Shown: positions 59,342 to 59,777 of the stretch, in pieces | Numbering within the stretch: position 1 is the stretch's first letter | Layout of the letters: every line of letters starts with the position of its first letter | NCBI RefSeq assembly: GCF_048403405.1 | Contig: NZ_CP183129.1 | Source: Escherichia coli | GTDB taxonomy: Bacteria > Pseudomonadota > Gammaproteobacteria > Enterobacterales > Enterobacteriaceae | Length of the DNA: 64,000 nucleotides | Reading direction: 5' to 3' (one strand) | Program-made: the position numbers and the translations under genes | The notes under the pieces: model-generated | What the model saw: the letters and a program-made list of their open reading frames with translations, nothing else | What the model was told of the DNA's origin: nothing | Database searches by the model: none

Positions 59342-59418
59342 TGGTCGGCGAGAGAGGATTCGAACCTCCGACCCACTGGTCCCAAACCAGTTGCGCTACC
59401 AAGCTGCGCTACTCGCCG
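59342..59418 (-). tRNA. proM: tRNA-Pro (anticodon TGG)
   Basis: Reverse complement reads CGGCGAGTAGCGCAGCTTGGTAGCGCAACTGGTTTGGGACCAGTGGGTCGGAGGTTCGAATCCTCTCTCGCCGACCA; cloverleaf with a TGG anticodon loop. Confidence 0.9.
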
Positions 59419-59460
59419 AAATACTGCTTTTTGAATTTTTAGTTCAATTCTTTAAAGTCG

Positions 59461-59546
59461 TGGTGCGAGGGGGGGACTTGAACCCCCACGTCCGTAAGGA
59501 CACTAACACCTGAAGCTAGCGCGTCTACCAATTCCGCCACCTTCGC
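59461..59546 (-). tRNA. leuT: tRNA-Leu (anticodon CAG), long variable arm
   Basis: Reverse complement reads GCGAAGGTGGCGGAATTGGTAGACGCGCTAGCTTCAGGTGTTAGTGTCCTTACGGACGTGGGGGTTCAAGTCCCCCCCTCGCACCA. Confidence 0.9.
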
Positions 59547-59566
59547 ATTGTCACAACTTCTAATAA

Positions 59567-59642
59567 TGGGGTGGCTAATGGGATTCGAACCCACGACAAC
59601 TGGAATCACAATCCAGGGCTCTACCAACTGAGCTATAGCCAC
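59567..59642 (-). tRNA. hisR: tRNA-His (anticodon GTG)
   Basis: Reverse complement reads GTGGCTATAGCTCAGTTGGTAGAGCCCTGGATTGTGATTCCAGTTGTCGTGGGTTCGAATCCCATTAGCCACCCCA. Confidence 0.9.
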
Positions 59643-59700
59643 CACTACAAATCTTGTTACGCGGTATTACTACCACCGCAGCTCAAGCGCCGGGACTAAA

Positions 59701-59777
59701 TGGCGCGCCCGACAGGATTCGAACCTGAGACCTCTGCCTCCGGAGGGCAGCGCTCTATCCAGCTGAGCTACGGGCGC
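59701..59777 (-). tRNA. argX: tRNA-Arg (anticodon CCG)
   Basis: Reverse complement reads GCGCCCGTAGCTCAGCTGGATAGAGCGCTGCCCTCCGGAGGCAGAGGTCTCAGGTTCGAATCCTGTCGGGCGCGCCA. Confidence 0.9.

Follow-up and report, generated by a model that had tools for sequence, protein, structure and literature searches.

The closest described relative of the locus considered here is the argX operon of Escherichia coli K-12, which forms a single transcription unit (PMC5291269, PMC5137449). Its argX hisR leuT proM transcript undergoes RNase E processing and ends in a Rho-independent terminator after proM, which RNase E takes off the proM precursor immediately after the CCA end (PMC5291269). Its promoter, pArgX, is subject to inhibition by ppGpp, with DksA as a modulator (PMC5137449). 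Two further systems invite comparison. The tRNA-associated genomic islands, typified by a P4-type integrase and a duplicated tRNA 3′ end serving as attL and attR, resemble the present locus only in that it, too, has tRNA genes and, 3′ of the last of them, a block restricted to certain lineages. In Salmonella, Citrobacter, Enterobacter, Yersinia, Serratia and further genera, which show the order proM-glmZ-hemY, the four-tRNA operon, its terminator, glmZ and hemCDXY are conserved and follow one another as in E. coli; E. coli differs from these genera by an extra 3.5 kb, the aslB-aslA segment, which extends from the terminator to glmZ.

The window, that is, the whole 64 kb stretch of DNA that was analysed, contains a cluster with the same four tRNAs, order, strand, neighbours (yifK/thrP and aslB) and terminator as the K-12 argX operon, and with 99–100% identity to the locus in thousands of E. 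coli genomes. It is read, with a probability of roughly 0.95, as the housekeeping argX-hisR-leuT-proM operon, located where it usually lies on the chromosome and free of any mobile element, and no observation contradicts this identification; as such, it is a textbook tRNA operon, already known. The one departure from K-12 is a C7 rather than a C8 run in leuT (86 vs 87 nt), which is probably an assembly error.

Gene Content and Expression Signals

In the whole window, ARAGORN calls four tRNA genes and no more, each of them on the minus strand. The operon, its predicted signals and its two neighbours are as follows.

59,701–59,777, minus strand: argX, tRNA-Arg(CCG), 77 nt, first gene of the operon (ARAGORN; Rfam tRNA model, 64.1 bits; tRNA-Arg in the TUM14771 annotation)
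59,567–59,642, minus strand: hisR, tRNA-His(GUG), 76 nt (ARAGORN; Rfam, 69.7 bits; TUM14771 annotation)
59,461–59,546, minus strand: leuT, tRNA-Leu(CAG), 86 nt vs 87 nt in relatives (Rfam, 40.8 bits; ARAGORN call at 59,462–59,547)
59,342–59,418, minus strand: proM, tRNA-Pro(UGG), 77 nt, last gene of the operon (ARAGORN; Rfam, 65.8 bits)
59,799–59,827, minus strand: predicted pArgX, the argX operon promoter, sigma-70-type (consensus scan, 10 of 12 matches)
59,305–59,336, minus strand: intrinsic terminator of the operon (terminator scan; stem at 59,336–59,315, then a T tract)
59,880–61,265, minus strand: thrP (yifK), amino-acid permease, upstream neighbour (TUM14771 annotation; Pfam AA_permease, E = 2e-111)
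57,960–59,195, minus strand: aslB, anaerobic sulfatase maturase, downstream neighbour (TUM14771 annotation; Pfam Radical_SAM and SPASM)

The gathering score of the Rfam tRNA model is 29. Both ARAGORN and Rfam give the anticodon order CCG, GUG, CAG, UGG on one strand, which corresponds to argX-hisR-leuT-proM. A sequence-only reading of this DNA had placed such a four-tRNA operon at 59,342–59,777; these outer limits are equal to those of ARAGORN, and Rfam confirms the assignment. The argX, hisR and proM genes have the reference sequence, and leuT lacks one C of the C8 run.

The candidate pArgX consists of a −35 element, TAGACA (59,827–59,822), and a −10 element, TATTAT (59,804–59,799), separated by a 17 bp spacer, with the A/T-rich sequence AATTTATTTAAAAA before the −35 and the GC-rich discriminator CCACCCCCGC after the −10. 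At the other end of the operon, the stem-loop GAACCCCGC-TTCG-GCGGGGTTT, followed by a T tract, begins 5 nt past the CCA end of proM. Citrobacter, Salmonella and Enterobacter have conserved this terminator, and a slightly different version of it is present in Pluralibacter. The scan returned one promoter-like site 5′ of argX, one terminator-like site 3′ of proM and none in the intergenic regions, all of them being consensus matches only. The proposed course of expression is that a single sigma-70 promoter would give rise to one transcript carrying tRNA-Arg(CCG), tRNA-His(GUG), tRNA-Leu(CAG) and tRNA-Pro(UGG), and that transcription would end at the intrinsic terminator just described. The GC-rich discriminator of the predicted promoter is typical of stringently controlled stable-RNA promoters. 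Following the literature on K-12, RNase E would cut between the tRNAs and remove the terminator, and RNase P would trim the 5′ ends.

The cluster is one base apart, over 600 bp, from the annotated tRNA-Arg/His/Leu/Pro genes lying between thrP and aslB in strain TUM14771 (NZ_CP128875.1). The whole window is collinear with that genome and about 99.9% identical to it over 64 kb; the differences amount to six substitutions, a 12-bp repeat difference in hemX and the single-base indel in leuT. The hemX difference, at 54,259–54,270, consists of two extra ACCTGC hexamers and is an in-frame change in the length of a tandem repeat. Among complete E. coli genomes, the 3.5 kb around the cluster finds a match in 5425 of 5426, six of which are identical except for one base. 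Two further features of the window may be recorded here: a full-length match to the Rfam family "Erse small RNA" (RF02757, 318 bits) at 6449–6700 on the minus strand, overlapping the 3′ part of ubiJ, and a frameshifted fragment of a DKNYY-family gene at 47,862–48,016, between lptM and cyaY (TUM14771 annotation).

Absence of an Integrated Element

The distance from the thrP stop codon to the aslB start codon is 684 bp, of which the operon occupies 436 bp and the two spacers 102 and 146 bp (248 bp). These spacers are taken up by the promoter and the terminator and have no room for an integrase gene. No integrase lies beside the cluster, the immediate neighbours being, according to Pfam, a permease and a radical-SAM maturase, which bears out the earlier statement that the operon is flanked without one. 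The claim that no direct-repeat remnant is present holds as well: none of the 3′ 20-mers of the four tRNAs recurs anywhere in the window when as many as 3 mismatches are allowed, with shuffled controls giving approximately zero, and a sensitive BLAST of the full tRNAs against the same window returns no fragment longer than 13 nt outside the cluster. The BLAST matches of 11–13 nt represent the T-arm common to the four tRNAs, which match one another, and the direct repeats around the cluster are likewise accounted for by this shared T-arm alone. The search for a duplicated tRNA 3′ fragment, proposed earlier as the observation that would speak for a past integration, was consequently negative, the longest stray match being 12 nt and at chance level. 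This match, of argX bases 63–74 to positions 22,920–22,931, was rejected as fortuitous: its BLAST E value is 0.21, about 2 such 12-mers are expected, and it falls inside a coding sequence without a CCA end.

Comparison within the species gives the same picture. The 3.5 kb from aslB through the tRNAs to thrP are contiguous in 5420 of 5426 complete E. coli genomes, and 5422 have the inner 1.1 kb unbroken; inserts of more than about 1 kb are thereby excluded in those genomes. Between four and six E. coli genomes are without a contiguous locus. One of the assemblies, NZ_CP170378.1 (1428_w1_hybrid, labelled "complete"), shows no match to the aslB-tRNA-thrP locus except for paralogous tRNA-Leu genes. 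Taking into account that hisR, argX and proM are single-copy genes, the missing locus is likely an assembly gap.

An attachment site for a phage inside the operon was also considered and rejected. The matches found in the phage collection are complete phage-borne tRNA genes, two misfiled Salmonella contigs, and the 2620 bp record OR851160.1 ("Salmonella phage S.Kent 1-2-1"). In the latter, rsmC and a leuV-type promoter are joined to leuT-proM-glmZ exactly at the 5′ end of tRNA-Leu; with a coverage of 3x, the best account of the record is that bacterial DNA was mis-joined during assembly at the repeated tRNA-Leu(CAG) gene, giving a chimera and not an att site. A literature search found no papers on proM as an island integration site.

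Some O157:H7 genomes (strain 3384, positions 1831–2388 of locus L003) carry a 226-bp tandem duplication within the operon that produces a second leuT. The duplication also contains an unannotated hybrid tRNA, made up of the 5′ part of proM and the 3′ end of hisR and joined at the shared GGTTCGAATCC T-arm. This partial tRNA duplication was made by unequal recombination, not by integration; the hybrid having arisen in this way, a tRNA fragment alone is no proof of an island.

Origin of the Accessory Blocks

Two accessory blocks are recognizable in the window. The first is some 14 kb long, is bordered by ysgA and metE (approximately 11.35–25.3 kb) and occurs in complete form in 1133 of 5426 E. 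coli genomes. Its genes are those for FdrA, ArcC, Tkt, HxlB and a PtsG-like protein, together with a cysteine hydrolase, a cytosine permease, a DUF1116 protein and regulators of the LysR and RpiR types. Other E. coli genomes have a shorter, 8.4 kb form of this block. The second, between rarD and corA (37,558–38,894), comprises two genes, for a YPO3983-family protein and a DUF943 protein, and looked like a second, small accessory insert. Both blocks are separated from the tRNAs by more than 20 kb of core genes (corA, uvrD, xerC, dapF, cyaA, hemCDXY, aslA and aslB).

It is highly improbable that these blocks came in via the four tRNAs and were later moved off by rearrangement, and no observation speaks for it. 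The gene order from ubiD to rffT in the annotation of the near-identical TUM14771 follows the K-12 order, into which the blocks are simply inserted, one at ysgA/metE and the other at rarD/corA, and the edges of the blocks carry no tRNA fragments. With the blocks lying this far away behind core genes and the cluster uninterrupted in 5420–5422 of 5426 genomes, the earlier conclusion that the accessory content of the window did not enter through these tRNAs can be retained.

The Single-Base Difference in leuT

59,469–59,475, plus strand: G7 run (C7 in the tRNA), where the T-stem of leuT meets the acceptor stem (alignment to TUM14771)

The ends of leuT at 59,461–59,546 follow from its terminal sequences, GCGAAGG...ACCA; the ARAGORN call is moved by one base, which restores a 7-bp acceptor stem. 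With the C7 run, leuT has a 6-bp acceptor stem with a bulge, and the Rfam score is 40.8 bits for the C7 form of the window vs 48.5 bits for the C8 form of TUM14771. A leuT-specific query of 86 nt is matched exactly (C7) in 200 of 5429 E. coli records, and the remainder, about 96%, align with a one-base gap (C8). The minimum-energy structures predicted by RNAfold do not discriminate between the two, C8 and C7 leuT giving the same non-cloverleaf structure and the same energy.

The C7 form could in principle be real: of the four tRNA-Leu(CAG) genes, one would then have been altered or disabled in this strain by slippage in the C8 run, an event that would have recurred in some 4% of E. coli. Its occurrence in the window and in 200 of 5429 records is in line with this, and the window has no other homopolymer indel relative to TUM14771, which suggests that the assembly is not generally noisy. 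Furthermore, leuQPV are three other tRNA-Leu(CAG) genes, and such redundancy (a median of 4 matching places per genome) would buffer a loss of leuT. Against this, the six closest genomes all carry the extra base, consistent with C8 and confirmed by alignment for TUM14771, whereas the C7 records are spread over unrelated strains, including O157:H7, NCTC11129 and the K-12 derivative DH5alpha, a laboratory strain, with the K-12/MG1655 records themselves being C8. The run in leuT is, moreover, the only G/C homopolymer of at least 7 in the window and the site of the only homopolymer indel with respect to TUM14771; as the longest G/C run of the window, it is the classic site of residual consensus error in long-read assemblies. 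The deletion also lowers the tRNA model score and leaves the bulged acceptor stem described above. A real C7 variant is consequently unlikely. The scatter among unrelated strains, the extra base in the closest relatives and the uniqueness of the run favour a homopolymer error, so that the C7 in leuT is, judging from these alignments, most probably a consensus error of the source assembly rather than biology. The homopolymer is worth polishing before any call of a defective tRNA is made.

Distribution of the aslB-aslA Block in Enterobacterales

The segment that separates the operon from glmZ in the window is delimited as follows.

55,796–59,296: aslB-aslA block with the AT-rich aslA upstream region, 3.5 kb, between the proM terminator and position −17 of glmZ
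55,572–55,778, minus strand: glmZ small RNA (Rfam GlmZ_SraJ, 218 bits)

A Salmonella contig from the phage search contains yifK, the four tRNAs, glmZ and hemY without aslBA. Its homology to the window ends at 59,297, 45 nt past proM, and restarts at 55,795, 17 nt before glmZ. A wider survey, in which one genome per species was scanned for the exact proM sequence, gave 120 loci in Enterobacterales. Arrangements were counted for the 59 informative loci, namely those in operon context whose sequence extended 700 bp or more past proM.

40 of 59 loci: glmZ at most 1 kb after proM (hemY next where there was enough DNA)
2 of 59 loci: glmZ 1.6–2.6 kb from proM
4 of 59 loci: aslB-aslA directly after proM (E. 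coli, E. albertii, Superficieibacter, Pseudocitrobacter)
1 of 59 loci: hemY present, glmZ undetected
12 of 59 loci: other content after proM, including four Orbaceae His-Pro pairs that are not this operon

Kluyvera, in which aslB was found in a truncated locus, was counted apart and is a fifth aslBA case. In the survey, aslB-aslA is missing at proM in Salmonella, Citrobacter, Enterobacter, Yersinia, Serratia and most other Enterobacterales. The description of the flanking genes aslB and yifK as core therefore needs to be divided: it is correct within E. coli (5420 of 5426 genomes) and does not extend to Enterobacterales, across which aslB-aslA is lineage-restricted.

Such a distribution raises the question whether an island came in via proM long ago and left aslB-aslA as its remnant, its integrase and att repeats having eroded. 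The preponderance of loci with glmZ within 1 kb of proM, with the block intervening only in E. coli, E. albertii, Superficieibacter, Pseudocitrobacter and Kluyvera, is compatible with this idea, as is the start of the block 45 nt after proM, just beyond the terminator. A tRNA-Pro identical to proM is, in addition, an integrase-associated site in Zophobihabitans entericus, in which a solitary tRNA-Pro(UGG) is directly followed, at 160–1413 bp, by a P4-type integrase with the domains Arm-DNA-bind_3, Phage_int_M and Phage_integrase. This is the only integrase beside a proM-identical tRNA among the 120 loci, and it indicates that this tRNA sequence can be an integration target elsewhere.

The remaining observations weigh against an eroded island. 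Neither an integrase nor a tRNA 3′-end duplication, both marks of the tRNA-associated islands, is present anywhere in the window, and the block shows no strain variability within E. coli and no odd base composition: practically every E. coli genome has it, and the GC content is 51.1% for aslB and 53.1% for aslA, the window as a whole having 51.5%. An AT-rich composition is confined to the aslA-glmZ intergenic region. The block starts past the terminator and not within the tRNA, as would be the case for tRNA-associated islands, and no direct repeat of at least 9 nt joins its two borders. None of the 120 loci has an integrase in operon context; phmmer searches of all ORFs of these loci retrieved, with XerC as the query, only the true xerC orthologues about 9.8 kb away and, with the Zophobihabitans integrase, only that protein itself. 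The spacer behind the terminator measures about 100–290 bp in the Enterobacteriaceae compared, and at this spot or close to it further genera have small inserts of other kinds (such as an MFS transporter or a histidine phosphatase), all lacking an integrase, a pattern that suggests routine turnover by indels where the spacer varies. An origin of the block as an eroded proM island is thus very unlikely. On the strength of these sequence comparisons, we take aslBA to have been gained long ago without an integrase, or else lost differentially, in this variable spacer, and not to be a tRNA-targeted island.

Implications for the Locus and for glmZ Control

Transcription of glmZ in E. coli depends on sigma-70 only (PMC3045617). 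In Salmonella and Enterobacter, the spacer between proM and glmZ contains GlrR sites (TGTC-N10-GACA) together with a sigma-54 motif. In the three species bearing aslBA that were compared, namely E. coli, E. albertii and Superficieibacter, neither GlrR sites nor a sigma-54 motif are found upstream of glmZ. The aslA-glmZ intergenic region of the window (55,779–56,202, 34% GC) lacks both, which fits sigma-70-only transcription of glmZ. The link is not clean, as two Citrobacter species with short spacers and without aslBA show no GlrR-site motif on visual reading. The aslBA block may nevertheless have displaced an ancestral control region of glmZ, a suggestion drawn from few species.

For E. coli itself, the tRNA cluster is almost never occupied and can serve as a sound negative control for the window. 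At the level of the family, aslB-aslA illustrates that tRNA neighbours which count as "core" in one species can be lineage-restricted. A tentative and rather doubtful extension is that the spacer behind the proM terminator is an integrase-free spot of gene gain and loss across Enterobacterales; if this were true, it would explain the constitutive sigma-70 transcription of E. coli glmZ.
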